NCBI GenBank assembly: GCA_041674205.1
Contig: JBAYWF010000003.1
Coordinates: 47,221 to 111,220 of the forward strand
Direction: 5' to 3'
Length of the DNA stretch: 64,000 bases
Source: Parcubacteria group bacterium
GTDB lineage: Bacteria > Patescibacteriota > Minisyncoccia > Moranbacterales > UBA2206
Both the position numbers and the translations under genes were made by a program. A model generated the notes under the pieces. The model was not told the origin of the DNA. It saw nothing but the letters and a program-made list of their open reading frames with translations, and made no database searches. Positions 30,008 through 57,112 of the stretch are shown piece after piece. The number at the start of each line of letters is the position of its first letter. Position 1 is the stretch's first letter.

Positions 30008-30118
30008 ATAGTCTCCATCTTAGCCTAGAATCGGAGAATAATCAAGGATTTGGGACAAGCGGATCGGAATAATCTTTAAAGCTTAACTTCCCTGCGCATA
30101 TTACGGTTTTTTTATCTT

Positions 30119-31219
30119 TTATTTTTCAACACGCTTTAAAACTTTGACAATCCCCGCATATGCGTCGACTTCTATCAAATCCCCATCATGCAGGACTTGG
30201 GTCGCATTCTTAGTGCCCACGATACAAGGAATATTGAATTCCCGAGATACGATGGCGGCGTGGGAAAGCATGCCACCCTGGTTGGTGACTATGGCAGCTG
30301 CTTTTTTGCAAGCCATCATCAATTCCGGTCCGGTTGTCTCGACAATCAATATTTGTCCGCTTGCCATCGAACCTATGATTTCAATCCTTTCATTCTCATC
30401 CACGTCAAGAATATCGCTTTTGAGAACCTTTGCCGTTCCGCGAACCCTGCCCTTATTCGCGATATGGCCAACGATAGTGTTTTCTCCTGTTTTATCTTCC
30501 ATATTCCGTATGATTTTTTTAGCATCTTCGCCAAATAAAATCCGCATTTTATTATCAAGGAAGATTGCGACATAAGCTGTCCGCCTATCCCCTAATTGCT
30601 TCTGAACGACTTTTTCACCTTTAAAAAGCAGCAGGACCTCTTCAATGGAATAAAGTTGCAGGTCATTGGACGGTACGGTAAATTTTTTTGAAAGCTTGGC
30701 TATAAGCCTATGGAAATAACTGCTTTTTTCAAAAGACATCCTATTGATGAATCCCTTGGCTCTCAATCTGAAATCTCCAAAATCACCGAAGTTTTTTTCA
30801 ATATTGTTTTGCGCCCCATCGGCATAAAAAAATTCAGTTTTGGAATAAAAGAAATAAAACTGGGCTACGAGTTCTAGAAATTTTTTAACATCCTCCTGTT
30901 TTATATTTTGAGTTTCGATTTCCAACGTGTTTTTGAAGAAAATTTCCGATCTTTCCATATATTCCTCGAAGTTTTTTCTAAATCGTCCTATATCCGGTTT
31001 GCTTTTATAAAATCTCCCGCCTTCGCTAAGGGCAAGTCCTAGTTTTTGTTTGGAAATATATCTATCAAGTGTTTCGCCATCGAAAACCGCCAACAGATCC
31101 ATTGATCGGTAAAACTCAGAAAACAGCTCGAGCCCTAAAAAATAAGGCGCGCTGACTTTCCCGCCAAAAAGCCTTTGATAATTATCAAGGTCTATTTTAT
31201 TAATATTTTTTTCAACCAT
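30119..31219 (-). CDS. PEP-utilising enzyme mobile (phosphohistidine swivel) domain protein with uncharacterised N-terminal domain
   Basis: C-terminal about 90 aa ILIVETTGPELMMACKKAAAIVTNQGGMLSHAAIVSREFNIPCIVGTKNATQVLHDGDLIEVDAYAGIV is a PEP-utiliser swivel domain with the phospho-carrier His; N-terminal about 270 aa unassigned; AT-rich. Confidence 0.7.
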   Translation of the reverse strand: MVEKNINKIDLDNYQRLFGGKVSAPYFLGLELFSEFYRSMDLLAVFDGETLDRYISKQKLGLALSEGGRFYKSKPDIGRFRKNFEEYMERSEIFFKNTLEIETQNIKQEDVKKFLELVAQFYFFYSKTEFFYADGAQNNIEKNFGDFGDFRLRAKGFINRMSFEKSSYFHRLIAKLSKKFTVPSNDLQLYSIEEVLLLFKGEKVVQKQLGDRRTAYVAIFLDNKMRILFGEDAKKIIRNMEDKTGENTIVGHIANKGRVRGTAKVLKSDILDVDENERIEIIGSMASGQILIVETTGPELMMACKKAAAIVTNQGGMLSHAAIVSREFNIPCIVGTKNATQVLHDGDLIEVDAYAGIVKVLKRVEK

Positions 31220-31257
31220 ATATGAATATCATTAAAAAAAATAATCGTTTTTGTATT

Positions 31258-31695
31258 TTAGTTGTTAGCATTTGCCAGATAATCGCCTATGATTATTTTA
31301 TGATCAAACGCAAGTTCGTCCGGCAAGCCATCCAGCGGAAACCATTCGTATCCAAGGGCGTCATCACCGGCTTTTGGACTGCCTGAAATTGTCACAGCAT
31401 ATGCCATATCTATGACTTGTTTGGGATGCCTATTCGGTTTGCCGTAAACCCCGATAAGCTTGATCGACTCGACTGCGACGCCTAATTCCTCTTTGACTTC
31501 CCTTATGACGGATTCCTCCGTCGATTCATCCCATTCCACATATCCGCCAGGCAAAGCCCAAAAACCTTTGAACGGATTCGCGCCTCTCTTGATAAATAAA
31601 ATCCTATCATCTTTTATGATGACCGCGTCAATCGAAACGCCTCGATTGTTGAAGCGACCGCATTCAGGACATTGTTCATCGTTTGATAATTCCAT
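31258..31695 (-). CDS. Nudix hydrolase with N-terminal CxxC zinc ribbon
   Basis: CPECGRF ... GFWALPGGYVEWDESTEESVIREVKEELGV Nudix box. Confidence 0.85.
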   Translation of the reverse strand: MELSNDEQCPECGRFNNRGVSIDAVIIKDDRILFIKRGANPFKGFWALPGGYVEWDESTEESVIREVKEELGVAVESIKLIGVYGKPNRHPKQVIDMAYAVTISGSPKAGDDALGYEWFPLDGLPDELAFDHKIIIGDYLANANN

Positions 31696-31726
31696 TTTGT
31701 TTAAATAAAAATTATAGATTCGCAGA

Positions 31727-31987
31727 TCACAGAAACCAGTAATTGATGATGCCGAACGTGGTTATAATGGTAAAAATAATCGTCGTAATCAAAATCCCGA
31801 TTTGCCCGGCTTGTTTCCAGGCCTTCCATGATGAATATAGCCAAAACGGCTGGGCAAGCAAATTCATTATTAATCCATATTCCGGAAATTTTAACGAAGT
31901 CGCTATTTGCGCGCCGATAGTCAATCCGGGAAGGGCGAATTGGGCGACCTTATTGAATAATTTTCCTTTTGTTGCCGCTTCGTTCAT
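31727..31987 (-). CDS. small hypothetical membrane protein
   Basis: two TM helices; start moved to MNEAATKG (31987) because an attC-like L'/R' motif occupies the upstream part of the longer ORF. Confidence 0.4.
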   Translation of the reverse strand: MNEAATKGKLFNKVAQFALPGLTIGAQIATSLKFPEYGLIMNLLAQPFWLYSSWKAWKQAGQIGILITTIIFTIITTFGIINYWFL

Positions 31988-32157
31988 AAAATTTTTTAAA
32001 AATATTTTGTCTGACGCATCTGCATATCTGAAGTTTAATCCCGACTTTATCACCCAAATCTTAACATGATTAGGGACGCTTGTTAATAGACTGATTTGGA
32101 ATATTCACCAGGCTACGGGATTAAATTCAGGTGGAGCCATTAAGAATTTTAGCTTTT

Positions 32158-32570
32158 TTATATTTCGTTTTCTATGTTTCTAAAATAATTTTTTGCCTCC
32201 AACAATGATAAATTTTCTACCATATTTGATTTATTGACCCATTTAGCTTTAACGATGTCTTTAGCCGTAGGATGGATATGTTCTTGCTCGGATTTGAAAA
32301 GAAACATATAAGTATCGATAATGACCGGATTATCGTTAGCTGCTCGTCTCTTGTAGTTGGGCAATGTTTTTATCAAGGTCAGCTTTTTAATTCCTGCTTC
32401 TTCATAAATTTCCCGTTTCGCCGCATCAATGATATCTTCACCTTTTTCAATGCCTCCTTTTGGAAATCCCAAGCATCAACATCTTTCATTAAAACTAAAA
32501 CGACTTGATTTTTATTATTTACAACTATTCCTCCAGCACTATCAATTATTTTATAGTCGGTTTCATTCAT
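32158..32570 (-). pseudogene. Nudix hydrolase interrupted by a -1 frameshift in a G-run
   Basis: ORFs 32379-32570 and 32158-32472 together encode ...VLVLMKDVDAW | GFPKGGIEKGEDIIDAAKREIYEEAGIK; restoring one G in the GGG run at about 32468-32470 gives a contiguous Nudix box. Confidence 0.7.
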
Positions 32571-32707
32571 AGAGATTGATAAAAATTTGGGTGAAAGAAA
32601 TTTATCCTCTTGATTATTATTTCCCGAAAGCGAAAAAAAGTTTAGATCAAGATGGATTCCTATAACCGCGTATACAGGTGTTATGCGCTGTCGTAATTTT
32701 TTTCGTG

Positions 32708-33157
32708 TTAAAGCAGCCCCTCATTGATTAACTGGAATGATGATTTGCCGGTATGCTTTTTCGTAATCACCTCGCCTGGGTTTTTCAAAATGTCTTTTAT
32801 ACGATCGACTTGTTTTGGTGAAGTATTGCGTGGGATGTCCTTAAAGGCAAAATATTTTATTTTATCAGCCTCTGGATTCAGAACGATTTCTCCGCCGATG
32901 ACTTTGCAGATGTATTGGAACACAATCTCATCCTTATCTGGCTTGCTGTATACGCCTGTTAGCCGCTCAACAACCGTGTTGAATCCAGTCTCTTCTTTTA
33001 CCTCTCGAACGACGCATTCCCAAGGTGTCTCACCATGTTCAAGGGTGCCTCCGGGGAGATTCCACAAATCGCAATCAGTCCTATGGCAAAATAAAATACG
33101 GTTTTCATCGTCGAATATAGCCGCGAATACGCCAATTGTGAAAGTCGGTTTGGACAT
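32708..33157 (-). CDS. Nudix hydrolase
   Basis: WNLPGGTLEHGETPWECVVREVKEETGF Nudix box. Confidence 0.85.
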   Translation of the reverse strand: MSKPTFTIGVFAAIFDDENRILFCHRTDCDLWNLPGGTLEHGETPWECVVREVKEETGFNTVVERLTGVYSKPDKDEIVFQYICKVIGGEIVLNPEADKIKYFAFKDIPRNTSPKQVDRIKDILKNPGEVITKKHTGKSSFQLINEGLL

Positions 33158-33190
33158 TGTTTATTAGATAAAAAATTACGATCACATACA

Positions 33191-33340
33191 ACGTATGCGC
33201 ATCATCCGAAGTTGCACCATGGATTATTGATTAAATTTGTTAATATCGCTTTACTTGATTATATCACTAAACTTGCCATTTCGTCAGCGCAATTTGAGAG
33301 AAGAAATTTTGCACTCCTTGAAATATAATTACGCAAAATT
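33191..33340 (-). repeat. conserved about 150-bp intergenic module (copy 1), shared with 39503-39651; carries a promoter-like TGACGA-18-TATAAT on the minus strand
   Basis: about 85-90% identity to the 39503-39651 copy over GAAGTTGC.C..TGGATTA.TTGATTA.TTTGTTAATATCGCTTTACTTGATTATATCACTAAACTTGCC.TTTCGTCAGCGCAATTTG. Confidence 0.8.
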
Positions 33341-33403
33341 CCTGACTCGTCGTAACTATCATTAAATCGAAATCTGGACGTAGCCTAATAAGCTGTTTTG
33401 TAA

Positions 33404-34024
33404 CTATTTATTTTTGGCGATTAAAAAAATAATTCCCGTGTTTACATATTCTTGTATGGGATTTTCTTCAAGGACAAAATCCAGTATCTCAAATTTATGC
33501 TCAGAAAGCATGTCTTTTATTTCTTTTTCGCAGTAGTAAGAATAGAATTTTTTTGCGTTATCATATCTGTCGTCCGTGATTACTTTTTCGCCACTGCCTT
33601 TTTTTAAATTTATATATAATACGCCACTGGCTTTAAGCACCCTTTTCATTTCCTTCAGTGCTTTTAAGGCATCAACTTTATTCAGATGCAATAATGTGGC
33701 GCTGCACCAGACGCCATCGAACGATTTGTTCTTAAAATTTAAATCTAACATATTCATCACATGGAACTTGGCATCTGGGACGGATGATCGGGCTTTATCG
33801 ATCATTTTTTGAGAAAGGTCGATTCCAGTCGTAACGTATTTGTTAGAAGCAAAAAAATCCGTATCGCGACCAAAGGCGCAACCGATATCCAAAACGCTTC
33901 CATTTTTAGGCAGATACGAAATGAATTTGTCGAGCCAATCTTTGTTTTGCAAGTTCGTCGTGTTTTTAATGTATTCGTCGACATTTTGATCGTAGAAATT
34001 AATAGTATTTTTAATATAATCCAT
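33404..34024 (-). CDS. class I SAM-dependent methyltransferase
   Basis: motif I VLDIGCAFGRD and methyltransferase type-11 spacing. Confidence 0.85.
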   Translation of the reverse strand: MDYIKNTINFYDQNVDEYIKNTTNLQNKDWLDKFISYLPKNGSVLDIGCAFGRDTDFFASNKYVTTGIDLSQKMIDKARSSVPDAKFHVMNMLDLNFKNKSFDGVWCSATLLHLNKVDALKALKEMKRVLKASGVLYINLKKGSGEKVITDDRYDNAKKFYSYYCEKEIKDMLSEHKFEILDFVLEENPIQEYVNTGIIFLIAKNK

Positions 34025-34393
34025 AGATAATTACAAAAAGTTTATTGAGCGGAACCAGATATGCGGCGTTATGCGATGTGGCAAAAGCCGACTCCGATAA
34101 GAAAAAATTGGAAGATTGATTAAAAGTCGGGCTCTCTCTTCAAGTTTTTGCTACTTCTTTATTATATATCAACAGAAGAAAAGGGCAAAAATTCGGGTAA
34201 AAAATGAAATTCAAGTCCAGAAAATACAAGAGGGAATTTCATTTTTTCCTCATATTCGGTGTTGTGCGATGTAAATTTTTTATCTCAATATTTATTGAAC
34301 TAAACTCTGTTTTATTACTAAGAAAATTTGATTTTTGTTTTGGATTTTGGGCAGATGGGTCAGGGGTGAATGCCCAAAATTCAAAACTCCTTA

Positions 34394-35026
34394 TTAAGTT
34401 TTGTTCATCAATCTCAATATTTCCTTTGGGTTATTTGCCACCCTTGTATTACCAACCATACTTTTATCAAGTCCCCAGCCATAATCTACTAATATAATAT
34501 TATCATCATTTATACCAGCTTTTTTTGAAACTTCGTAATCAATAGCTCTATCGCCTATGGATACGATTTCATCTGATGAATAGTTATTCTCTTGTATCAA
34601 ACCTATCATCATATCGCTCTTGCGGGTTTTTTGGTCTGCTCCGCAATAAATTTTTTCGAATAAAATTGTTAGGCCAAATTTTTCTATTTTAGGCAGAATT
34701 TCATTACTATGGGAAGCAGACACCAGATATAATTTATATTTTGTAGCAAGCTCCTTTATCACATTTTCTATATCCTCAAAAACACCATGCTCCATTTTGA
34801 CAATTTCTCTTAAATAAATAGAATTGGCTTCTTCAAAATCTTTCTCTTGGATGCCTAAATTTTTCAAACACTCTTTGTAATTATAGCCATAAACAACCCT
34901 AAATTCTTCCAATGTTTTTGGGCAAGAAACTTTGAAGCGCCTACAAATCATTTTATAAACTTCAAAGACGCTCACAAAAGAGTCTATTATCACACCGTCA
35001 TAATCAAATATAATCGCTTTTATCAT
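34394..35026 (-). CDS. HAD-IA family hydrolase (phosphatase)
   Basis: MIKAIIFDYDGVIIDS motif I DxD, motif II S/T, C-terminal GDRAIDYEVSKKAGI motif IV. Confidence 0.85.
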   Translation of the reverse strand: MIKAIIFDYDGVIIDSFVSVFEVYKMICRRFKVSCPKTLEEFRVVYGYNYKECLKNLGIQEKDFEEANSIYLREIVKMEHGVFEDIENVIKELATKYKLYLVSASHSNEILPKIEKFGLTILFEKIYCGADQKTRKSDMMIGLIQENNYSSDEIVSIGDRAIDYEVSKKAGINDDNIILVDYGWGLDKSMVGNTRVANNPKEILRLMNKT

Positions 35027-35167
35027 AAAAAATACAAATTAAATAGTTTACGTAGCCTCAGCGGAGAAAACACCTTTTCCCCCTCTATAAATAAATTAAA
35101 AATCAAATTTTCTGTCCTTAATTAAATCACAAATCTAAAAATTACCACCAAGATAAAAAAATTATTT

Positions 35168-35244
35168 CGCCGAACGTTTCGCAATATCCGACGTTCGCCT
35201 TAGCGAATGTGGCTTTAGCCCTTGCGGATATTGAGTGTTAGCTG
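35168..35244 (-). repeat. attC-like palindromic site (R'' CAGCTAAC - AC - L'' TCAATATCCGC ... L' GCGAATATCCGAC-like ... R' GTTCGGCG)
   Basis: 9-bp L''/L' complementarity CAATATCCG/CGGATATTG, inner palindrome CGAACGT/ACGTTCG; lies between the IMPase-3 and HAD cassettes. Confidence 0.55.
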
Positions 35245-35329
35245 ATGTATTAAAAATTCTTTTCGCTTTTGTCGTTAGACAAAAGATTTAATTGGGGCAA
35301 ATTTATTTTTTTAATCCTTCCGCTGTGTT

Positions 35330-36157
35330 TTATTTCTTTACAATTCCCAACAACTGCTTAACAATTTTAGCGTTACCTGCAACATAATCTCCTTCATAAA
35401 CATCGCATTCTTTTCCGTCTAAATTAGTCATTATCGCACCGGCTTCAGCGGCAATAAGGCTGCCGGCTGCAACATCCCATGGTTTTTGTTTCAATCTGAT
35501 TAAACCGTCAATTCGACCGCATGCCAAATAACAAAACTCGGCAGCCATTCCACCTTTTCCAAATGTTTCATCAACAATGTGGGTGCTGTCGTAAAATCCA
35601 AAATATTTAACATTGGGAATTGAATTCATTATTCTTTTATCAAGTCCACCAATTTCATCATCTTCACTTCCAGGATAAGTTGAGTAAGTTATAATTGCTT
35701 TTGATAAATCATAGGCTTTGCTTGTGTGTATAGGTTCATTGTTTAAGGTTGCGCCCTTTCCTTTCTCAGCAACAAACATTTCATCTGTTTTTGGTAAATA
35801 GATGACTCCCAAAATAATTTCGCCTTTATATTCTAGCCCAATGGACACCGAAAAAGTATTTCGCTTAGCAATGTAGTTATTTGTACCATCAATTGGATCA
35901 ATAATCCATTTATATTCTGAAATTAACACACTTTTACCTAGTTCTTCACCTAAAAAAGCATGCTTGGGAAAAGATACTTTAATTATTTCAACAATTTTTT
36001 GTTCTGATGCTCTGTCTATTTTTGTTGTCGGATTAGCATGTACGTCATATTGAATTTCGTCAGATTTTACATTGTCAATATTTTCCATCAAAAATCTTCC
36101 AGCTTCTTTGGCTGCTTTTATTGCGGTTTGTCTGAGATTGTTTTCGTTGTTTGTCAT
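35330..36157 (-). CDS. inositol monophosphatase family protein (third, divergent paralog)
   Basis: WIIDPIDGTNNYIAKRNTFSVSIGL metal-binding motif; 275 aa. Confidence 0.85.
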   Translation of the reverse strand: MTNNENNLRQTAIKAAKEAGRFLMENIDNVKSDEIQYDVHANPTTKIDRASEQKIVEIIKVSFPKHAFLGEELGKSVLISEYKWIIDPIDGTNNYIAKRNTFSVSIGLEYKGEIILGVIYLPKTDEMFVAEKGKGATLNNEPIHTSKAYDLSKAIITYSTYPGSEDDEIGGLDKRIMNSIPNVKYFGFYDSTHIVDETFGKGGMAAEFCYLACGRIDGLIRLKQKPWDVAAGSLIAAEAGAIMTNLDGKECDVYEGDYVAGNAKIVKQLLGIVKK

Positions 36158-36228
36158 GGCCTTGGATTAAAAAAATAAATTTGCCTAGATTGAATGCCCG
36201 CTAAGGCCGAAAATAATTTTTTAATATT

Positions 36229-36357
36229 TCAGCTAACGTATCCAAATATCTGAAGTTTGCTGGAGTGTAACGAAAGCAAATTTGGGAGAGAAAATTTTTC
36301 TTACCTTTGAAATTTAAAAGTGAAAAATTTTTGAACCAGATATTTGGTGTTGTCTGA
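36229..36357 (-). repeat. attC-like site (R'' CAGACAAC - AC - L'' CCAAATATCTG - 78-nt centre - L' CAGATATTTGG - ATAC - R' GTTAGCTG)
   Basis: perfect 11-bp L''/L' inverted repeat about 85 nt apart; R boxes fit RYYYAAC/GTTRRRY loosely; stop codon of upstream Nudix 12 nt before R''. Confidence 0.65.
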
Positions 36358-36386
36358 TGTTTTGTCTGCCGTCGTTTTTAAAATCA

Positions 36387-36833
36387 CTAAGCCGCCCAGC
36401 CGAACTCGCCATAATGCACATTCTTGTTAATATTCTCTAGGGCAAGTTTTACTTCTGGTAAAATGTTGTTCGGAAGACCGTCCATATTATACCATTTAAG
36501 CTCGTCACATTTATCAAGTTCCATATTGGTAATATTACCAGCCCATTTTTCAGTACGAAGATAAATATCAAAATATTCGCGATCAGATGCTAATCGATGC
36601 ATAACATGAACCACCTCGAGGTCTTCCGGACTTACCTTAATCCCAGCTTCTTCACTGGCTTCTCGGATAATGCATTGTTTCGTTGTTTCACCACCATCAA
36701 GATGTCCTGCCACCAAGCTATAATTGCCGTCTTGATAGCCAGTGTTGAAGCGTCTGAGAAGTAAAACTTGCCCGTCCTTAATCAGCACAAGGTAGGCGGC
36801 GACGTATGGTTTAAATCTTTCTTTATCAGACAT
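36387..36833 (-). CDS. Nudix hydrolase
   Basis: GNYSLVAGHLDGGETTKQCIIREASEEAGIK Nudix box. Confidence 0.85.
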   Translation of the reverse strand: MSDKERFKPYVAAYLVLIKDGQVLLLRRFNTGYQDGNYSLVAGHLDGGETTKQCIIREASEEAGIKVSPEDLEVVHVMHRLASDREYFDIYLRTEKWAGNITNMELDKCDELKWYNMDGLPNNILPEVKLALENINKNVHYGEFGWAA

Positions 36834-36869
36834 AGTAATGTTGGATTATTAATTAGGCTGACAAAATTT

Positions 36870-37094
36870 CAGATAACGATTAAGAATATCTGAAGTCCTG
36901 CGCTTTTGCTTCTATGCACAAAATCTTAAATATTCCTGACATTTTGTTAATTTTATTATACCCCAAATTACAGCAAAACTGAAAAGCGCGGGATCTGCCT
37001 GCCTGCCTGCCGGTAGGCAGGGGAGAGAAAAATCTATCCCCCTTTTAGTTTTAATTGTGGTAAATTTTTAGAACCTCATATTTGGTGTTCTGCG
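36870..37094 (-). repeat. attC-like site (degenerate; R'' CGCAGAAC ... R' GTTATCTG) with internal GC hairpin CCTGCC/GGCAGG
   Basis: same ACATC-R''-AC-L'' ... L'-spacer-R'-AAA layout as neighbouring sites but weaker L pairing. Confidence 0.45.
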
Positions 37095-37102
37095 ATGTTT
37101 AA

Positions 37103-37624
37103 TTAAGCGGCTTTTAACAACCGCAACATTTTTGTAGGCCATTCAGTATTGCCCCGTTCTATTTCTTCGTGGAAAAATTTTATCATGAGCTGTTTTGGCT
37201 CGTCGGAAAAATCACAATGCTCAATTTCAGGCCAAACTTCTTTATACCACAATCCAATATTGTCATGGCGTAAATTGCACGCACCGCCGTTTGGATCGCG
37301 TTCAATAAACAAAATCCGATTTATATGGTTAGTGACTGAAGCACCAAGACACTGGATGCAAGGCTCAAGCGTACTGTAAAGAGAAATAGCCTTACCATGC
37401 TTCCAAGCTTCACTCAAAAGCTGACTATTTTTTATTATCAAACTATTTTCAGCATGATTGACGAAGGATTTTTGTTTATTGATTTCGTTGCCAGCAGTGT
37501 CAACGATTTTTTCATCAATAGCCAAAACAGCACCCACGGGATAATTGCCAGCCTTGTAAGTTTCACGGGCAATACTGATGGCCGCCTCAAAACATTGTTT
37601 ATCAAATAGACTTAATTCTTTCAT
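37103..37624 (-). CDS. CMP/dCMP-type zinc deaminase family protein
   Basis: HAENSLI (HxE) and TLEPCIQC (PCxxC) zinc-binding motifs of the cytidine/deoxycytidylate deaminase fold. Confidence 0.75.
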   Translation of the reverse strand: MKELSLFDKQCFEAAISIARETYKAGNYPVGAVLAIDEKIVDTAGNEINKQKSFVNHAENSLIIKNSQLLSEAWKHGKAISLYSTLEPCIQCLGASVTNHINRILFIERDPNGGACNLRHDNIGLWYKEVWPEIEHCDFSDEPKQLMIKFFHEEIERGNTEWPTKMLRLLKAA

Positions 37625-37691
37625 GAGATGTAGCTTAATTCAATTTCACTTAACGTTTAGGAATATCAGAAGTTTTTGGCTCTCTTTATTA

Positions 37692-38297
37692 TTATTTGGG
37701 ACACTTTTCGTAGAATACCTTAAAACTTTTTTCTTCGCCATATTTCGTACTCATGCCATTGAGCAATTTTTGAAGGTCTATATCGAAAAATTTTCTATGC
37801 GAATAAGCAGGGTCGCCAAGCGTAACAACAACATTTTTATTTTTTACAGTGACAGAATCTACCACGCAGCTATGGCCATAATTGACCCCGCTTCCAGGTT
37901 TAGCGTAAGCAGCCATGTTAAACGAAACAATAATGTCATTACCAGCTTTTAAGTTTTCGCATAGAAAATTTTTTATGTCGCCTATCTTCGAAGGGTAATG
38001 ACGCTCAACAGCCAGAGATATTTTATGCTTCTTCAAAAATTGCGGTATTTTATAGACCCACGTGCCATAGCCAAGTCTGTCTTGCGGCAGTTTTCCCGCA
38101 ACTTTCATTTTTATATTGAACAATCGTTGATCTTCTGGGGCAATAACAACGCCCAAATCTTTGGCCATTTCATCCTGCGAAATCAAATTCAACCCGCGGC
38201 GCAACATTACCCATTGAATACAGCAAGGCAAGCAACAATATTTTTGCTGGGTAAGCGGGATATAACTTGGCATTATGCGGACTTTATTTGTTGTCAT
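37692..38297 (-). CDS. putative papain-fold cysteine peptidase (C39-like)
   Basis: candidate catalytic Cys in LTQQKYCCLPCCIQWV (Gln upstream as oxyanion residue) and His in NYGHSCVVDSV, resembling the C39 HFVVL motif; weak. Confidence 0.35.
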   Translation of the reverse strand: MTTNKVRIMPSYIPLTQQKYCCLPCCIQWVMLRRGLNLISQDEMAKDLGVVIAPEDQRLFNIKMKVAGKLPQDRLGYGTWVYKIPQFLKKHKISLAVERHYPSKIGDIKNFLCENLKAGNDIIVSFNMAAYAKPGSGVNYGHSCVVDSVTVKNKNVVVTLGDPAYSHRKFFDIDLQKLLNGMSTKYGEEKSFKVFYEKCPK

Positions 38298-38394
38298 AAA
38301 ATTCCCTGGATAATAATTTCAAAATCTGAAGCGTGCAGCATTTTAATGGGACGTAGTGGGATCAGATTACCATATCCTGCGATACAAGCCTATT

Positions 38395-38799
38395 TTAACT
38401 CTCAACTTCTCGCAGGAACTCTTTTAGAGGTTCTACTATGTCGGTCAAATCGACATATTCAATGATTTTATCAGCGACCCCCTTGGCAGTGTCCCGAAGC
38501 TGGACCCCTTTATTGATTATTATGATGATCTTTTTGCCGGCACCAAAGGCGATTCCCGCCTCAAGAGCCCGTCCGGTAGATGAGGTTGATAGGTCGATCA
38601 ATAAAGCATCGCACTCAAGGACTTCTTCCTTGGCGCGATCCATCAATTCCCGTGGATCATAAAACATCTTTTGATAATTTTCAACGTCACGGATAAAACA
38701 AAAGTCATCGAACCCGGCTTCTTTTACCAAGTTGCACAAGTTTTCTATTTCGGATTTATTTTCACCCTCTTTGAAGGGGGCGGTGATAAAAATTTTCAT
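38395..38799 (-). CDS. nucleoside 2-deoxyribosyltransferase-like (PF05014/DUF4406-type Rossmann) protein
   Basis: N-terminal KIFITAPF (cf. KIYLAGPF) and C-terminal DALLIDLSTSSTGRALEAGIAFGAGKKII with the conserved Glu. Confidence 0.6.
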   Translation of the reverse strand: MKIFITAPFKEGENKSEIENLCNLVKEAGFDDFCFIRDVENYQKMFYDPRELMDRAKEEVLECDALLIDLSTSSTGRALEAGIAFGAGKKIIIIINKGVQLRDTAKGVADKIIEYVDLTDIVEPLKEFLREVES

Positions 38800-38827
38800 A
38801 GCGAGAGAGTTAAAAATAGACTTATTT

Positions 38828-38916
38828 CACATAACGTTTCTCGATATCCGACGTTTCAATGAAGTGAAACGAATTGAAATGTGGCTTTAGTCCTCGCGGA
38901 TATTGAGTGTTAGATG
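38828..38916 (-). repeat. attC-like site (R'' CATCTAAC with embedded TAA stop - AC - L'' TCAATATCCGCG ... inner hairpin CGTTTCA/TGAAACG ... L' CGGATATCGA - GAAAC - R' GTTATGTG)
   Basis: R'' is a perfect RYYYAAC; L''/L' 9-bp complementarity; stop codon of Nudix 38910-39488 lies inside R''. Confidence 0.65.
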
Positions 38917-39461
38917 ATGTTTTTGTGTGACACTATTCCACTTAGATATAATAACAATGGCATCAGAGAAGTGCCATCACTAATCTCATTATTAGCGATC
39001 AGTTCTTTTACTTCACTTAATGAAAGCCAATGGATTTCCTTGACTTCGTCTGTGTCGATTTCGGCCTGCTCGCCAGTTTCAACATTACCTAAAATTATGT
39101 GAACATTTTGATTCGACATTCCGTTCGAAGGATTGTAAGAGTAAAGAAGTTTTAATGCCCTCGCTTTAAAACCAACTTCCTCCATTACTTCTCGTTCAGC
39201 GGCTAATAAAATATCTTCACCATTTTCAACGCCACCAGCAGGCAATTCCCATTCAATCTTTTGCGTGGTATAGCGCAAAGACTTGATAAAACAAATTTCG
39301 CTTTTGGCGTTTAGCAATAATACGGCTATTGACTCCTTCGGGTAATCAAGTTGATGATATTTTTCTATAATTTTTCCAGAAGGCATTAAAACTTTGTCGA
39401 TATATAGATTTATCCATTGGCTTTCATAGATTGGTTTTCGATCTAATCGTTTTGGTAGCAT
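38910..39461 (-). CDS. Nudix hydrolase (ADP-ribose pyrophosphatase-like)
   Basis: WELPAGGVENGEDILLAAEREVMEEVGFK Nudix box; start set to ATG MLPKRL (39461); longer ORF begins with GTG at 39488. Confidence 0.85.
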   Translation of the reverse strand: MLPKRLDRKPIYESQWINLYIDKVLMPSGKIIEKYHQLDYPKESIAVLLLNAKSEICFIKSLRYTTQKIEWELPAGGVENGEDILLAAEREVMEEVGFKARALKLLYSYNPSNGMSNQNVHIILGNVETGEQAEIDTDEVKEIHWLSLSEVKELIANNEISDGTSLMPLLLYLSGIVSHKNII

Positions 39462-39496
39462 ATATTTATAATTTAGAGAGTGTCGCACAAAAATTT

Positions 39497-39681
39497 CATC
39501 TAACGTATCGGCACATGCGAAGTTGCGCCGTGGATTAATTGATTATTTTGTTAATATCGCTTTACTTGATTATATCACTAAACTTGCCGTTTCGTCAGCG
39601 CAATTTGGGTTAAAAAAAATTTGCATTCCTTATAAAATCTAATTGCGCAAATTTTTTGAACCGCATGTGCCGTGTTATCGG
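39497..39681 (-). repeat. attC-like site containing the conserved promoter module (R'' CCGATAAC - AC - L'' GGCACATGCG ... L' CGCATGTGCC - GATAC - R' GTTAGATG)
   Basis: perfect 10-bp L''/L' complementarity with a sequence unlike the L boxes of other sites (covariation); R' is a perfect GTTRRRY. Confidence 0.65.
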
Positions 39682-39708
39682 ATGTAAAATTTTTTTAATT
39701 CACTTTTA

Positions 39709-40515
39709 TCAAATAGATTGGGATTTAACAACCTCCAATAACTTTGCATGCAGGGCTGGAGACGACGCAAGAAAGGTGAAATTGTCTTGTGGTTGAGAAA
39801 GGGCATTTGAATAATCAATCGTATTTCCGAAAAAATCTGTATAAATTCCGCCCGCTTCCTCAATAATTATCTGCTGGGCAACATTATCCCATATTTTGCT
39901 CGTGCGATTTAAAAAAGCACCATAATTTCCTTTGGCTACCATAGCAATATCAAAAACACTATTACTGCTTCTTAAGTTTCTAATATTCAAAACTATTTCA
40001 GCTAGCAGCGCACACTCATCTCTTGTAAACTTCGGATTTTCTTGGTGACCATCAATTCCATACGCTACAAGCGCTTTTTTCAAATCGCCTTCTTTGGTAA
40101 TGCAGATTTTTTCGGAATTACAATATGCTCCTTGCCCTTTCTCGGCCACATAAATTTCGGAAAAGTTTGGCAAAGCTAGTCCACCAGCAATCGGAACATT
40201 ATTTTTTAACAATCCAAGCATTATCCCGTACAGCGGCGTTCCGTTGGCGAAGTTGCTAGTGCCGTCAATTGGATCAATGACCCATGTAAAAACTGACTTT
40301 TTATCAATCACTCCAGCTTCCTCATCAATGATGTTATGCTCCGGAAATTTGGCTTGGATTTTTCCAATCAATAATTTACCGATTTCTAAGTCAGTTTCCG
40401 TAAGTACCTGATTATTATCATCTTCCTTGGTGATGCCAGCAACTTTGCCAAAACTTTTTCTTGCAACGTCAGAAGCTTCTTTCAGAGATTGAGTAATGAA
40501 ATCCTTGTATTCCAT
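39709..40515 (-). CDS. inositol monophosphatase family protein, cassette-borne paralog of 20545-21366
   Basis: WVIDPIDGTSNFANGTPLYGIMLGL; lower GC than the core copy; flanked by 35-bp inverted repeats 39672-39708 / 40521-40556. Confidence 0.9.
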   Translation of the reverse strand: MEYKDFITQSLKEASDVARKSFGKVAGITKEDDNNQVLTETDLEIGKLLIGKIQAKFPEHNIIDEEAGVIDKKSVFTWVIDPIDGTSNFANGTPLYGIMLGLLKNNVPIAGGLALPNFSEIYVAEKGQGAYCNSEKICITKEGDLKKALVAYGIDGHQENPKFTRDECALLAEIVLNIRNLRSSNSVFDIAMVAKGNYGAFLNRTSKIWDNVAQQIIIEEAGGIYTDFFGNTIDYSNALSQPQDNFTFLASSPALHAKLLEVVKSQSI

Positions 40516-40548
40516 AATGTTAAAAAAGTGAATTAAAAAAATTTTATT

Positions 40549-40633
40549 TCCGATAACTCGTTTATGCGCGAAATTTGTTTCGTATAATGCTCGATAATTT
40601 GTTTGTTATGCTAAATTATTGCGCGTTATCCGG
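40549..40633 (-). repeat. attC/attI-like boundary site between murJ and first cassette (CCGGATAAC ... GTTATCGG)
   Basis: R''-like CCGGATAAC-GC-GCAATAATTT and R' GAGTTATCGG separated by about 70 nt, immediately after the murJ stop. Confidence 0.4.
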
Positions 40634-40689
40634 ATTTATTTTAATCCCTAAAACTTGCCTGCCGCTTTTTTCTAGAGTATGTACATCTG

Positions 40690-42339
40690 TCACATCCGAC
40701 TCACTTCATCCGTGCTTTCTAAAATGACTTTATTGCCTTTGAATATCTTGCGGGTCAGGGAATTTCTGAACAAGACGTATTCTTCCAGCTTCAAGAAATG
40801 GCTGATGCCGGTAAAAATCACGAATCCCAGGGCCAGCGGAACGGTCAATTGGGTGAAAACTCCCAAAAAAGTATCCAAATCGACCACCGAAGCGACCGCG
40901 TATTTCGCGCCTTGTATCCCGAGGCCGGCCGCGAAGGAAGCGAAAGCGATTTTCGATACCGACAGGATGATGTTTTTATCATCCAAACTCTCGAAGCGAG
41001 CGCGCAAGAAAAAAAGTAACAGCATCATCTGCACCACGTTGGCCAAAGAAAACGCGATCGCCAAACCGACGATCTGGACGCGGCCGATGAGCATTATGAC
41101 CGCCAGGATATTCACGGCCTCCGTAGCGATGGCGATATAGAAAGGGGTCTTGGTGTCTTGCAAGGCATAGAACGAACGGGCCAGGAGCTGCACCGCGCTT
41201 TGCGCGAACAGGCTGAGCGCCAAGATGCCCAAACATTGGAAGGTCAGGATCGTATCGTTCCAATCGAATTTTCCGGCTCCCAACACGACCCGCACGATCT
41301 GCGCCCGCAAGACGACCATAAACACACTGAGTGGGATGACGAAAAACATTATCTGGCGGAAAGTTTCCGAAAAAGCCCTTATGAAATTTTCCTTCTCGTC
41401 ACGCGCGGCATACGTTGACAAGACGGGAAAAACCGCGATAGCGAAAGATATCCCGAACACGCTGAGCGGCACGCTGGCCAAGTTTTGGGAAAAATTGAAC
41501 ACCGCCAAACTGCCGGCGGCCAGCGTCGAAGCGAAGACCGTGATCACCATCAGATTGAACTGGTTGATCGCGATGCCGGTCATCCGCGGCAGCATCAGGG
41601 TGAAAACCTTGCGCACATTCCGGTTTTGCCAGGCCGCCGCCAATCCCCATCGGTGGACATAGCCCAATTTCCGCACCGTCGTATATTGCAGGACCATATG
41701 CATCAAGGCGCCGAAGACCACGCCCCACGCCAGCCCGATCGGCCCCATCAGCCGGACAAACACGGTGATGCCCAGAATGATGCCGATATTATACAGGAGC
41801 GGCGCGATCGAATACACTAGAAAATGTTTCATCGAAGTCAGGACACCACCCATAATCCCGCTGACACCCAATAAAATCGGGCTTAAGAACATTATCCTGG
41901 TAAACAGGACCGCGCTTTCCATCTTTTCCGGGGAAAAACCCGGAGTGATGATCCGCATCAAAAGCGGCGCGGCGATCGCACAGGCCAGCGAAATGATGAT
42001 GATTAAAAACAAAGACAGGTTCATAATCCCGTTGGTCAGCCGCCAAGCTTCGTCATTATCCCCGTCCTTGCTTCGCAATCCGGTGAAAACCGGAATGAAA
42101 GCGGCGCTCATCGAACCCAGGATAAGCAAGCTATAAATCAGATCCGGAATCCGGAAGGCCGCATAATAGACATCCAGCGTGTCCCCCGCTCCGAAATTCG
42201 AAGCCAGCAGGCGATCGCGCACAAGCCCGAGCAGATTGCTCACAAGGCCCGCGACCGTGATTACGAAAGCCGCCGAAATGACCGATTCGGTCGGCCGGGA
42301 TTTCAATATGAAATTAGCTTTGAAAATTTTATCCATCAT
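40690..42339 (-). CDS. murJ: lipid II flippase MurJ (MviN)
   Basis: 549 aa, 14 TM; N-terminal SAAFVITVAGLVSNLLGLVRDRLLASNFGAGDTLDVYYAAFRIPDLIYSLLILGSMSAAFIPVF is canonical MurJ. Confidence 0.9.
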   Translation of the reverse strand: MMDKIFKANFILKSRPTESVISAAFVITVAGLVSNLLGLVRDRLLASNFGAGDTLDVYYAAFRIPDLIYSLLILGSMSAAFIPVFTGLRSKDGDNDEAWRLTNGIMNLSLFLIIIISLACAIAAPLLMRIITPGFSPEKMESAVLFTRIMFLSPILLGVSGIMGGVLTSMKHFLVYSIAPLLYNIGIILGITVFVRLMGPIGLAWGVVFGALMHMVLQYTTVRKLGYVHRWGLAAAWQNRNVRKVFTLMLPRMTGIAINQFNLMVITVFASTLAAGSLAVFNFSQNLASVPLSVFGISFAIAVFPVLSTYAARDEKENFIRAFSETFRQIMFFVIPLSVFMVVLRAQIVRVVLGAGKFDWNDTILTFQCLGILALSLFAQSAVQLLARSFYALQDTKTPFYIAIATEAVNILAVIMLIGRVQIVGLAIAFSLANVVQMMLLLFFLRARFESLDDKNIILSVSKIAFASFAAGLGIQGAKYAVASVVDLDTFLGVFTQLTVPLALGFVIFTGISHFLKLEEYVLFRNSLTRKIFKGNKVILESTDEVSRM

Positions 42340-49285: not shown

Positions 49286-51127
49286 TCATCCGACCTGCTT
49301 TGCGATTTCTTTCGGGGTTATGATCGGCAGTTCCACGATGAATTGCGAACCTTTACCTTCGCCTTCCGACTCCACCCAGATGCGCCCGCCGTTGCCTTCG
49401 ATGAAGCCTTTGCACAGATACAAACCCAGTCCGGTGCCGCCGGCATTCAGGCGGCTGGTATCCAAGCCTCTCGAAAATTTAGCGAAAAGATGCGGGATTT
49501 CCTCTTTGGGAATGCCGATGCCGGTATCGGAAATGGTGATCCTGACCACCGGCCCGCTGATGTTTATGCTTTTTTCCTCCGGATTGCTGGTGACTGGCGG
49601 GACATAGCCGGATTTTTCCGCCTGTGTCAGAGCCAAGGTGACGCCGCCCGCCGGGCAATATTTCACCGCGTTATCCACCAGATTGGAAACCGCCTCGCGG
49701 ATGACCTTGCCGTCGATGGTGAGCTCCGGCAATGGGGTTTCCGGTTTTTCATATTTCAAATACAGGCCGTTATCCTTGGCTTTGATGAACAAGGTGTCCA
49801 TCACCTCCTGGCAGAGGTCTTCGATTTTCCATTTGGCGAAATCATATTTCATACCGCCGGATTCGATTTTGGAAGCGGCGAAAAGATCCTCGATCAAAAG
49901 ACCCATATTCTTGATGACAGTCAGGGTTTTGCCCAGCGCGTCCTTCTGCCCGGAAGATATTTCCCCATAGGAGCCTTCTTCGACCATCGACACATACCCC
50001 CGGATGCTGGTAAGCGGTCCGCGCAGGTCATGGGAAGCTCTCGCGATGAAGTCGGTTTTGGCCTGGTCGAGTTTTTTGAGTTCGACGTTAGCTACCGCCA
50101 GTTTGTCGGAAGTTTTCTGCAACTCGTCTTTCTTTTCTCCGAGTTCTTTGTTGGCGATGAACAGTTTCACGTTCTTGACGTTGATCTCCCGGTTGGCGGT
50201 TTGCAGTTCTTCCTTCTGTTCCACTTCTTTCTTGACCGATTTGATGAGATAGTAGCCGAAGACAAAAGACAAAAACAAAGTGATGCCGGTCAGGACCCGG
50301 TTGGTGTTGTTCCTGATAAAAGCGAATTGGGAAGCGATCAGGATGACCTGGGTGGCCACTAAGGCCTGGGCTCCCAGGAGCTTGATGTTGAAAGCTTTGA
50401 ATTTAACGATGAGGTATCCAAGGAAAAGAATGAAAACTGTCATTCCAAATAAGCCATATTGTTCAATCTCAAAAGCATACAGATAACCTTTTTCATCAAG
50501 ATAGCTAGCTAGAAATCCCGCAATAAAAAAAGAAAGGAAAAATAATAATAATCCTATAGAAGCATACCTAATTTTTTTCCTTTCATCTCCCCACGCTTTT
50601 CGATAGCCAAAAAAAGAAAAAATTATAGTTAAAAAAGCAAAGAATAATTCCAAAAAAAATATATAATAATCATAGATTTTTACAATCCCCGGACCAACCA
50701 TTGGCTCACAAATAGGCATATAAAATCCACTAGAATTTTTCAAATTAAACAAAATCGCCGGCATAATTATCATAGCTAGAAATATTTTAAATCCAATATT
50801 AATATCCTTTTTGTTGATAAAAACATAGATAAAATAAAAACACAAAAGAAAAAGCAAGGGATCTAAAATTCCAAGCAGAGACCAGAAAAACATAATCAAA
50901 CTACTATCCACATTTGTCCAAATAATAAGATTGAAAAATGTCCACAAGAAAAAAACAGCTGAAAGGGACAAAAGAATTTTACTCGCCAAATTCCTACTTC
51001 TATAAAAAACAAAAAAACCAAATAGCAAAGCAATCAATGCTGTTGGGATATGTGAGTAGTATAAAAGATGCGGAACTGAGTTAGAAAAAACTAAATATAA
51101 TGGAGCAGGTATGTCAGTACAAAACAT
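49286..51127 (-). CDS. sensor histidine kinase with large polytopic N-terminal membrane domain
   Basis: HisKA H-box ASHDLRGPLTSIRGYV; HATPase_c N/G1/G2 boxes (DNAVKY, DTGIGI, GGTGLGL); about 10 N-terminal TM helices; no response regulator adjacent. Confidence 0.85.
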   Translation of the reverse strand: MFCTDIPAPLYLVFSNSVPHLLYYSHIPTALIALLFGFFVFYRSRNLASKILLSLSAVFFLWTFFNLIIWTNVDSSLIMFFWSLLGILDPLLFLLCFYFIYVFINKKDINIGFKIFLAMIIMPAILFNLKNSSGFYMPICEPMVGPGIVKIYDYYIFFLELFFAFLTIIFSFFGYRKAWGDERKKIRYASIGLLLFFLSFFIAGFLASYLDEKGYLYAFEIEQYGLFGMTVFILFLGYLIVKFKAFNIKLLGAQALVATQVILIASQFAFIRNNTNRVLTGITLFLSFVFGYYLIKSVKKEVEQKEELQTANREINVKNVKLFIANKELGEKKDELQKTSDKLAVANVELKKLDQAKTDFIARASHDLRGPLTSIRGYVSMVEEGSYGEISSGQKDALGKTLTVIKNMGLLIEDLFAASKIESGGMKYDFAKWKIEDLCQEVMDTLFIKAKDNGLYLKYEKPETPLPELTIDGKVIREAVSNLVDNAVKYCPAGGVTLALTQAEKSGYVPPVTSNPEEKSINISGPVVRITISDTGIGIPKEEIPHLFAKFSRGLDTSRLNAGGTGLGLYLCKGFIEGNGGRIWVESEGEGKGSQFIVELPIITPKEIAKQVG

Positions 51128-51169
51128 TTATATTTTTACCTTTAAATAATTAAGTTTCAAATTATTATA

Positions 51170-51667
51170 TTATACATTCATGTATTTTTTATTTTTTTTG
51201 AAATATTCTGGATTTTTCCAATCATTGCCCGTAATTATCTTGCGGCAATTCTTTGATCCACAAAGACAGGGCATCTTATATTCCGGGTCAGTCACTGAAA
51301 ATCCATAGTCATGCGTTAGTTCTTCTCCAGATTTAACATTCTTTATTAAAATCAAACTTCCTTTTTTGTCGTATCCCATATTTGGTTCACAACTATGATT
51401 ACCGAGCCATGCTATCGGCATATAATTCATATTGGGAACTGCATAAAAACCATCTTGGACTTGAGTCCCAAAATGGCCTACAACTTCTTTTGTTATTCTG
51501 TCTAATTTTTCATATACATCCTTACCAAAAAACTTATCAGAATATGAGAAATCATGATCTATAATAATTGTACCTTTTTTTAATGATCTTAAGGCAAACA
51601 AACCTGCTTCACCAGGAAGCATTTTTGATGGCTTAACTCCTATTATTACAGGGGGGAATTTAAACAT
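51170..51667 (-). CDS. SET-domain protein (putative protein-lysine methyltransferase)
   Basis: GLFALRSLKKGTII, NHSCEPN, ELTHDYG and post-SET CLCGSKNCRK are the four SET-domain signature blocks. Confidence 0.8.
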   Translation of the reverse strand: MFKFPPVIIGVKPSKMLPGEAGLFALRSLKKGTIIIDHDFSYSDKFFGKDVYEKLDRITKEVVGHFGTQVQDGFYAVPNMNYMPIAWLGNHSCEPNMGYDKKGSLILIKNVKSGEELTHDYGFSVTDPEYKMPCLCGSKNCRKIITGNDWKNPEYFKKNKKYMNV

Positions 51668-51671
51668 ATTA

Positions 51672-52454
51672 TTATTTTATTAATTTAATTTTTAGATTAA
51701 AATTATTCGCACAATCAATTATATGTTTATTTACACCTGGCGGATAACTCCACCAATAAAAATCCTCATCATCAGTTTGATCTTCCGGATATAAACGCAC
51801 TATCAATGGCCTTAACCCAAATTCTTTCTCCACTCTTTCAATATTCGGCAAAACTATCTTTTCCACAAATCCAGCTTCTCCTTTTTCCCTGTCATCGAAA
51901 GAAAAAGTCTCAAACAAAATTCCGTGAGCAATCAGATGAAGCATCGTGTAATAATAATAACCTGAAACATCTTGAACTTTTTTTCTCCATTCCGGATTGT
52001 CATATATTTCCATTTCATAGCCGGAAATTTTGCAAAGATTGTGATGGAAATCAACCAGTTTTTCTCCATTTTTCAAAACACACTCATTCAATTTCTTTTT
52101 TTCATTCGTATGGAAATCCATCACATCGACAGTCGCTTTTTCGCCATTTTCCAATGTCACACGCAAACGCCCAAGCCCTTTCTTTTCTTCATTAAAAGAA
52201 ACGAAAATATCCTCGCTCTCCTCCCAAGCCAATGGCTCCGCCCCGACATATTTGGCGCATTGGTAGAGAAACACAAAACCATTATCTGGCGAAGCGACTT
52301 GCCGGTTCAAAACCGCCCTCGGCATATCTTTAAAGGGCGGCAAGAACTTATCCCCCAACTCCTCCTCGATCCTCTTCCTCAGCTCGACATCCGCCCAGCG
52401 TTTTTTCAGTTCTTCCCTGGCTTCGTCCAAGGACACATAGATACCATCCGCCAT
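51672..52454 (-). CDS. hypothetical protein, co-transcribed upstream partner of the SET-domain gene
   Basis: 260 aa, 4-nt gap to the SET gene, no motif recognised. Confidence 0.5.
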   Translation of the reverse strand: MADGIYVSLDEAREELKKRWADVELRKRIEEELGDKFLPPFKDMPRAVLNRQVASPDNGFVFLYQCAKYVGAEPLAWEESEDIFVSFNEEKKGLGRLRVTLENGEKATVDVMDFHTNEKKKLNECVLKNGEKLVDFHHNLCKISGYEMEIYDNPEWRKKVQDVSGYYYYTMLHLIAHGILFETFSFDDREKGEAGFVEKIVLPNIERVEKEFGLRPLIVRLYPEDQTDDEDFYWWSYPPGVNKHIIDCANNFNLKIKLIK

Positions 52455-54350: not shown

Positions 54351-54382
54351 TTCTTTCGTCTCCTTCTTTGAATCGATTGATT

Positions 54383-57107: not shown

Positions 57108-57112
57108 CCATT

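Follow-up and report, generated by a model that had tools for sequence, protein, structure and literature searches.

The systems closest to the locus described here are integrons, in which a cassette starts with bases that match its own R'', a consequence of crossover at G|TT, and in which the additional domain of the integrase IntI helps recognition of the folded attC site and, in VchIntIA, makes the contacts with extrahelical bases. Another point of comparison is offered by the pdif (Xer) modules of Acinetobacter plasmids, where genes lie between inverted binding sites for Xer-family recombinases and orientation alternates. The contacts that VchIntIA makes with extrahelical attC bases are reported to be specific (PMC5027507), the IntI-specific additional domain around patch III is a defining IntI feature (Messier and Roy, 2001, as cited in PMC9668308) and archaeal IntIs retain this domain (Ghaly et al., 2022; PMC9668308). 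The stretch analysed here, hereafter the window (64,000 nucleotides of contig JBAYWF010000003.1, from a Parcubacteria group bacterium), harbours within a low-GC island an inositol monophosphatase (IMPase) gene bracketed by long inverted repeats. This gene is probably an integron-type cassette in the chromosome of a member of the Moraniibacteriota (Patescibacteria), and its own hairpin would have an outer stem that is split into the two arms of the repeat. The reading is carried by sites that exist, are oriented and covary, by a pairing of cognate cassette ends that is general in the family, by the occurrence of the same cassette in many contexts, by the polymorphism of the island and by a recombinase associated with related arrays.

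The elements concerned are the following (coordinates are those of the window and bit scores of sites are those of the covariance model R1, described below):

39709 to 40515, minus strand: cassette IMPase open reading frame (ORF), 268 aa (Pfam PF00459, 2.6e-49, 168.6 bits against a gathering cut-off of 27)
40524 to 40557, minus strand: 5' arm of the repeat, made of the R' box GTTATCG (40557-40551), the conserved GAAAT (40550-40546) and a cassette-specific 22-nt extension (40545-40524)
39674 to 39707, minus strand: 3' arm of the repeat, made of the extension (39707-39686), the conserved ACATC (39685-39681) and the R'' box CGATAAC (39680-39674)
39490 to 39688, minus strand: the attC-like site of the IMPase cassette itself (160.6 bits on the minus strand versus 18.5 on the plus strand; L-box covariation), with R'' at 39680-39674, L'' at 39672-39662, a long loop, L' at 39519-39509, an unpaired 4-nt spacer at 39508-39505 and R' GTTAGAT at 39504-39498
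40543 to 40640, minus strand: short attC-like site upstream of the IMPase cassette (51.7 bits, E = 3.6e-8), whose R' box gives the G of the G|TT junction
39504 to 40556, minus strand: whole cassette, 1053 nt, predicted to run from the TT at 40556 to the G at 39504

Positions 39674-39707 on the plus strand are the reverse complement of 40524-40557 over 34 nt with two mismatches (32/34), and this pair, which has no comparable counterpart in dinucleotide-preserving shuffles (0/100), occurs once in the 64-kb window, at the IMPase gene, and extends to 44 nt at 86% under looser criteria. Bracketing inverted repeats had been noted in the original prediction, with coordinates that are off by 1-3 nt and as a perfect hairpin, which they do not form; their 3' arm does end 1 nt from the stop codon as claimed, while the strict 5' arm ends 8 nt from the ATG and not 5 nt. 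Two arm positions that had been reported as variable are real, but they correspond to a conserved 2-nt mismatch (AA/TG, at positions 10-11 of the arms) inside a recombination box, that is, to a fixed feature and not to noise, because the GAAAT and ACATC motifs are conserved in nearly all sites. This box makes up the outer 12 nt of each arm, GTT-NNNN-GAAAT pairing with ACATC-NNNN-AAC, the outer 7 nt being GTTATCG, the upstream site's R' box, on one arm and CGATAAC, the R'' box of the cassette's own site, on the other, and the inner 22 nt prolong the stem with a sequence unique to the IMPase cassette. The predicted cassette limits (39504-40556) follow from the cognate relation between R' and R'' and from the attI-like junctions GTA|GTT-NNNN in L072, L084, L087 and L082 (L numbers designate other loci retrieved for comparison), and the TTAGAT part of the R' box at 39504-39498 belongs to the next cassette. 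As for the protein, an exact look-up returned no match and none of the NCBIfam equivalog cut-offs (SuhB, HisN, CysQ, FBPase/IMPase) is reached, the best being HisN with 155 bits against 275.

The intergenic regions on the minus strand share one architecture – ACATC-NNNN-AAC, 1 nt, an 11-nt L'', a loop of 30-200 nt, L', 4 nt and GTT-NNNN-GAAAT – which has the paired R''/R' (AAC...GTT) and L''/L' boxes, the unpaired central spacer and the variable loop that make an attC site, with an L box of 11 bp without interruption and a spacer that is asymmetric (1 nt versus 4 nt on opposite arms). The covariance model R1, based on six sites of the window plus two from a related locus, finds matches in the window that are confined to the island and to the minus strand, with scores of 74-161 bits versus 12-23 bits on the plus strand. 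Across 24 sites from nine sources, pairing is seen in 92% of cells versus 24-33% in slid controls, compensatory changes on both sides affect 10 of the 11 L-box pairs and the covariation score is 0.416 versus 0.118 in shuffles (reached by 0/500 of these). At least seven attC-like sites form an array at 33207-40640, as delineated by our own model R1, which is other than the curated IntegronFinder model, and its cassettes consist of one ORF and its own attC-like site, co-oriented in the array, with promoter-like sites in some loops even though integron cassettes usually lack promoters. Rfam has no family for these sites (its sole match in the window is one tRNA). A strict inverted-repeat scanner requiring R''/R' pairing within one site gave no match, and a relaxed one gave four sites, the others being retrieved with R1, the former result being informative because in the array R'' pairs with the upstream R'.

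A further trait of these sites is that in 13 of 22, GTT(C) follows the L box on the 5' arm and AAC-TT precedes it on the 3' arm, which creates a conserved 2-nt TT bulge plus 3 bp. This bulge is a possible counterpart of the extrahelical bases of integrons, but on the opposite arm from L''.

The repeat of the IMPase cassette is the longest instance of a property that is general to this cassette family. The two ends of 14 independent cassettes (seven from the window and seven from four other loci) were compared using position-window counts, and cognate ends match better than non-cognate ends in the NNNN of the R box (2.9/4 versus 1.7/4, p = 3e-4), at positions 13-24 (8.9/12 versus 4.0/12, p = 1.4e-6, with the observed sum found in 0/20000 permutations) and at positions 25-36 (5.4/12 versus 3.6/12, p = 1.4e-3). 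Gapped local scores range from 8.5 to 29 for cognate ends, with a non-cognate maximum of 10. Where a cassette directly follows the attI-like site, in L072, L084 and L087, its 5' end (TT + 4 nt) matches its own R'' perfectly. Further instances of the extension are cassette 1 of L084, with GTTAAGTGAAATTTTTCAAAATCC and GTTAAGTGATGTTTTTCAAAATCC at its ends, and cassette 1 of L087, with ~35 nt. The repeats do bracket the IMPase gene, as predicted, but they are not a device particular to it, most cassettes of the family having them.

The class 1 cassettes (aadA1, catB3, blaVIM-1 and others) are similar in having G|TT junctions and a first 7-12 nt complementary to their own R'' region, and in a control with nine of them, from two plasmids, positions 4-12 show clear cognate pairing. 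Further in, at 13-24, their complementarity is at background (2.56/12 versus 2.86/12, p = 0.70), unlike the 8.9/12 found here. Among the cassettes tested, the long extension sets this family apart from class 1, whose IntI1 also differs in having the additional domain.

In the excised circle, the arms would be contiguous with the attC-like site and form with it one long stem consisting of the 22-bp extension, the 12-bp R box with its conserved 2-nt mismatch, the asymmetric unpaired spacer and the 11-bp L box, and the crossover point G|TT would lie 25-35 bp inside the hairpin instead of ~6 bp. Crossover so deep in the stem would mean that integration puts TT-NNNN-GAAAT and the extension 5' of the ORF and their partner 3' of it, hence the bracketing repeats; the junction expected in a circular cassette under this model is ...GCCGATACG|TTATCGGAAATAAAATTTTTTT. 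When this junction (the cassette's own site plus its cognate 5' end) is folded as DNA, it yields one continuous stem at -59.6 kcal/mol (z = -9.2); the IMPase site in its array context yields -38.8 kcal/mol (z = -2.85), and RNA parameters give the same stem. The arms of the window and L001 cassettes show 3/68 differences, while the proportion of synonymous differences (pS) is 0.39, and a change from A4T7 to A5T6 is found in both arms. The ratio of nonsynonymous to synonymous divergence (dN/dS) among cassette IMPase copies is 0.06-0.11, and gene and arms are both constrained; the other window cassettes have no close homologs among the loci retrieved. The extension may owe its maintenance to a stabilising effect on the folded site once the cassette is excised (single-stranded or extruded), or to a role in juxtaposing the two flanking sites.

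A candidate enzyme is found in related loci. In L072, a 280-aa tyrosine recombinase is encoded divergently, ~100 nt upstream of the first cassette; such divergent recombinase genes adjoin arrays in six related loci (L072, L084/85, L087, L093 and L082) and relatives of the L072 enzyme are encoded in thirty metagenome loci, with attC-like sites on the divergent side in every 61-76%-identity locus with sufficient upstream sequence. These latter loci have in common a conserved attI-like motif, GTTYGTTTATANGTA|GTT-NNNN-GAAAT, at the junction to the first cassette. The arrangement of a complete integron, with intI and attI beside the array, is seen in L072, L084, L087, L093 and L082 and is absent from the window, whose array is of the integrase-less type known as clusters of attC sites lacking integrases (CALIN), which have at least two attC sites and no integrase nearby, here as established with our own covariance model and not the official one. 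Its current mobility is a prediction.

The best solved relative of the recombinase is VchIntIA, the Vibrio integron integrase (PDB 2a3v, 2.3e-49), and the match is split (query 13-188 corresponding to chain 6-184, and query 202-278 to chain 241-317), leaving ~43 residues of IntI region 185-240, that is, the additional domain, without a counterpart. Like IntI, to whose member IntI1 it is 34-39% identical (with gaps of ~31 and ~12 residues in the alignment), the recombinase keeps the catalytic residues (R146, K171, H277, R280, H303 and Y312 in IntI1 numbering, all invariant) and the C-terminal SPLD motif; unlike IntI, it lacks the residues matching the additional domain. Like XerA, it falls under the NCBIfam XerA model, being above that cut-off (250.8 versus 220 bits) and below the one for the integron-integrase family TIGR02249 (237 versus 265). 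Since the additional domain is absent, these recombinases are by that criterion not IntI members, though the system has the layout of an integron and appears to work like one. The array-associated recombinase would, we infer, act on the attC-like sites with crossover exactly at G|TT.

The IMPase cassette occurs in at least eight further contigs, among varied neighbours: L121, L001, L119, L072 and L003 have it at 83-93% identity with the same arms, and L117, L002 and L114 have it with one arm or a remnant. A different site precedes it in L072, L001, L121, L119, L003 and L117, and in the window and L072 the downstream site has a long homologous loop, with the L box changed on both strands. This shared downstream loop indicates that the ORF and the site downstream of it move together, as they do in integrons. 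Moreover, in the sister genome L005 (Candidatus Moraniibacteriota), which shows synteny with the window across 19 genes whose proteins are 83-99% identical, murJ (298-1944) is followed by lepA (1993-3786) at 48 nt and the whole island is absent between them. The proposal of a mobile cassette in an array is therefore upheld by an ORF between attC-like sites, by an island missing from L005 and by the same ORF and arms in other contexts; the gene is not the syntenic copy, universal among relatives and free of inverted-repeat flanks, that ancient duplication would leave.

Two observations were made along the way on these other loci. In L002 (924-4889), which is from a more distant member of the Moraniibacteriota, an array ending in the same IMPase cassette, now devoid of its 3' arm and own site, adjoins the 3' end of murJ in the opposite orientation; the murJ 3' flank may be a recurrent array location, or the array may have been inverted in L002. 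Besides, several contigs with a Patescibacteria-type IMPase (L072, L003, L006, L001 and L007), most of which carry cassette arrays, are labelled 'uncultured Gammaproteobacteria', 'Melioribacteraceae' or 'Bacteroidales', and these taxon or bin labels look unreliable.

Set beside sedentary chromosomal integrons and CALIN, the window's array is similar in many ways, including co-oriented single-ORF cassettes each followed by an imperfect palindrome R''-L''...L'-R' with invariant AAC/GTT, an unpaired asymmetric spacer, a variable loop, cassette 5' ends cognate to their own R'', low GC, a pseudogenised cassette and no integrase beside it. It differs from them in (i) the 12-nt conserved box (ACATC-NNNN-AAC / GTT-NNNN-GAAAT) with its fixed 2-nt mismatch, (ii) an NNNN that is free instead of RYYY, (iii) cognate end pairing over 20-35 nt versus ~7-12, (iv) a recombinase, in the relatives, without the IntI additional domain and (v) a Patescibacterial host. 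Archaeal integrons (PMC9668308) are comparable in being integron-type arrays in metagenome-assembled genomes outside the classical bacterial phyla, with lineage-specific attC sites, but the Patescibacterial recombinases, unlike theirs, lack the additional domain.

Several points weigh against an integron-type reading of the arms and of the array. The extension is missing in 3/14 cassettes, the comparison that makes it distinctive covers class 1 cassettes only, and direct covariation in it amounts to one clear compensatory change, the arms being mostly conserved, which also fits a sequence-specific role. The 64-kb window has no tyrosine recombinase homolog (tblastn, Pfam) and no attI-like motif, neither an attC-type crossover junction nor a target duplication is seen at the island junctions, and the recombined strand and cleavage site are assumed by analogy. 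The arms might instead act in RNA, with the 5' leader pairing past the stop codon to produce a closed stem-loop per cassette in a polycistronic transcript, for RNase III-type processing, mRNA stabilisation or control of translation initiation. This would suit arms that reach the start and stop codons (the ATG being included in those of the L072 HIT cassette), that are far more conserved than synonymous sites and that give the same stem with RNA parameters. We nevertheless consider it unlikely in view of the outer 12 nt, which are a recombination box common to all sites, of an extension that is continuous with the box and the L-box stem in the circular form, of arm mismatches (C-A and T-T) that are not G-U compatible and of the 3' arm of the NUDIX cassette at 38910, which lies inside the coding sequence. 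There is also a small chance that the arms are a functionless relic, left from the insertion of an ORF into a long palindrome that was already present (an empty cassette), since removal of the ORF leaves a 32/34 hairpin, the arms fill nearly all the non-coding flank and their sequence differs cassette by cassette. However, no empty-cassette precursor with the same arms was found, and arms with 3/68 differences where synonymous sites have diverged by 39-56% would need purifying selection or repeated correction.

A different view of the sites themselves is that they are double-strand Xer-type modules, like the pdif of Acinetobacter plasmids, which a Xer-like enzyme would recombine with no hairpin folding. 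In favour of it, genes are found between inverted sites whose orientation alternates along the array, around ORFs and loops, with an inner GTT:AAC beside the L box and a recombinase that passes the XerA cut-off without the IntI additional domain. What makes this improbable is that, unlike in pdif, the inverted partners covary within site and within cassette, compensatory changes keeping L''/L' complementary in the former and the 5'/3' ends in the latter, and such complementarity is needed by a folded strand, not by independent double-strand sites. In addition, the sites are 70-240 nt hairpins with loops whose scores are strand-dependent (104 versus 23 bits), the layout, in which a dedicated recombinase diverges from an attI-like site and a co-oriented array, is that of integrons, and the best solved relative of this recombinase is an integron integrase. 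The data contradict the remaining two explanations. A single gene with a 34-nt inverted repeat right at its flanks could suggest the terminal repeats of a small transposon or miniature inverted-repeat transposable element (MITE) carrying the IMPase gene, which is most improbable with no target-site duplication beside the arms, no transposase in the island, outer ends that are R boxes of neighbouring hairpin sites, different arms in all other cassettes and one such repeat pair, at the IMPase gene only, in the window. It is just as hard to credit an old in-place duplication of the backbone IMPase gene with incidental repeats, even with two paralogs at 73% identity 19 kb apart, when the island is absent at the same position in the sister genome, the cassette clade is common to other genomes in other contexts and GC at third codon positions (GC3) is 34% versus 49%.

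If the IMPase gene is an integron-type cassette, the question arises of where it came from, for which two other genes of the window are relevant:

20545 to 21366, minus strand: backbone IMPase paralog, 273 aa (Pfam, 5.2e-53)
35330 to 36157, minus strand: third, distant IMPase-family cassette (Pfam, 9.4e-57), 30% identical to the cassette IMPase

The cassette and backbone proteins are identical at 193/265 positions (73%, BLASTP) and their genes at 68.5% of nucleotides, close to the ~75% and ~70% originally given, and the low GC of the cassette gene is likewise as described (38.7%, GC3 34%, versus 45.0%, GC3 49%). The third, more divergent IMPase gene at 35330-36157 was also correctly recognised, and it is bracketed by repeats of its own (35237-35263/36211-36237 and 35286-35317/36164-36195). 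The backbone gene has in L005 a syntenic ortholog, 82% identical and with a conserved upstream region. By neighbour joining, the cassette copies fall into a single clade (98.5% bootstrap) whose closest neighbour is a non-cassette gene from L004, another Patescibacterium (73.5%), and the backbone gene has its ortholog in L005 as partner (99.5%); support is lacking at the deeper nodes, so that the phylogeny of the paralogs, which had been suggested as a check, does not place the clade relative to the backbone pair. Synonymous sites between cassette and backbone genes are saturated (pS 0.86), and the cassette copy is therefore old. The notion of a housekeeping gene captured as a mobile cassette thus holds for its cassette status and is unsupported, given this pS value and the tree, as regards derivation from the backbone gene of this genome; the gene apparently stems from a Patescibacterial pool of the IMPase family.

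Two chromosomal relatives deserve mention here. An 88% identical IMPase gene in L114 (6001-6807) sits in an ordinary chromosomal context with a 5'-arm remnant only and no attC-like site, and a 78% identical one in L004 (9987-10787) sits in an equally ordinary context without arms; the former could be a domesticated cassette and the latter a pre-capture gene. The flanks of the backbone IMPase gene (18869-20467 and 21400-22800) have no counterpart in L005, and encode two ORFs without a Pfam match and PurE (22236-22763).

Beyond this one gene, we tentatively propose, as an idea that could well prove wrong, that there is a Patescibacterial integron-like lineage with (i) an IntI-related recombinase without the additional domain, which could be a Xer-IntI intermediate or a reduced IntI, (ii) hairpin sites with a 12-bp box and a fixed mismatch, (iii) crossover 25-35 bp inside the stem, each cassette being bracketed by its own long repeat, and (iv) a housecleaning cargo (NUDIX, HAD, HIT, IMPase, deaminase) drawn from the phylum's own pool. 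In the literature searched, which is a limited collection, no paper was found that describes an integron from Patescibacteria or from the candidate phyla radiation at large, nor one that reports IntI-like recombinases beside arrays and without the additional domain. If confirmed, integron-type gene capture would reach the candidate phyla radiation, that is, organisms with tiny genomes that are host-dependent, and if salvage and housecleaning enzymes are truly shuffled as cassettes, this would be a direct route to metabolic adaptation. Under the current definition of IntI, which is based in part on the additional domain, an array-associated recombinase without it would be overlooked, or its array scored as integrase-less. 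The absence of this domain also raises the question of how the folded site and its strand are recognised, for which the fixed mismatch and the long cassette-specific stem are candidates. A cassette gene nested among non-cassette Patescibacterial members of its family offers a concrete case for the origin of cassettes, and the main interest is in the traits of the family (long split stem, fixed box mismatch and reduced integrase) more than in the single IMPase gene.

The genomic setting of the cassette and the other sites of the array are as follows:

40690 to 42339, minus strand: murJ, core gene upstream of the island (Pfam MurJ, 1.9e-88; 94% identical to the L005 copy)
30064 to 40688, minus strand: low-GC island of 10.6 kb in the murJ-lepA spacer, as defined by the GC profile, made of the cassette array and a distal PEP-utilizer/NUDIX pair
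28211 to 30007, minus strand: lepA, core gene downstream of the island (Pfam; 97% identical to the L005 copy)
39569 to 39598, minus strand: promoter-like site in an attC loop, directed at the next cassette (CTGACG, 18-nt spacer, TG-extended TATAAT; consensus match only)
38821 to 38923, minus strand: attC-like site of the NUDIX cassette at 38910-39488 (85.2 bits)
36863 to 37101, minus strand: attC-like site of the deaminase cassette at 37103-37624 (127.3 bits)
36223 to 36363, minus strand: attC-like site of the NUDIX cassette at 36387-36833 (103.7 bits)
35161 to 35251, minus strand: attC-like site of the third IMPase cassette (73.6 bits)

The region from ~30000 to 41000 has a GC content of 32-41% versus 45-53% in the backbone, and junction alignment puts the ends of the island at ~40688, just past the murJ stop codon, and ~30064, ~55 nt before lepA. 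Its ORFs, all on the minus strand, code for small enzymes, among them four intact NUDIX hydrolases, two IMPases, a HAD phosphatase, a deaminase and a methyltransferase; PADLOC returned generic NUDIX and methyltransferase domain matches only, and a defence role is unsupported.

Within the island, a module of ~104 nt recurs at 87% identity in attC loops, at 33203-33306 and 39514-39617 in the window and in the homologous L072 site (~10860-10990), and contains the palindrome AATTGCGCAATT and a promoter-like site with a TG-extended -10 (39598-39569 and 33287-33258, minus strand). At ~32100-32600 (minus strand) there is a frameshift-split NUDIX gene, with its N-terminal part and its NUDIX box (GGIEKGEDIIDAAKREIYEEAGI) in different frames, which is flanked by left and right attC-like half-sites and is, with this frameshift and this position, a decaying cassette. 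A methyltransferase ORF (33404-34024) has an attC-like left half on one side (~34050-34085) and a right half on the other (~33160-33190), with L boxes in rough complementarity; it is either inside the loop of one site or between two sites that are each minus a half. The lepA end (30119-31695) has no attC-like site and encodes a NUDIX protein and a 366-aa protein with a PEP-utilizer mobile domain; like the array, both are missing from L005. Outside the island, further stretches of low GC (31-40%) at 50000-52000 and 54000-60000, in which no attC-like site was detected, encode a SET-domain protein (51170-51667), a NUDIX protein (56570-57034, plus strand) and ORFs without a Pfam match.

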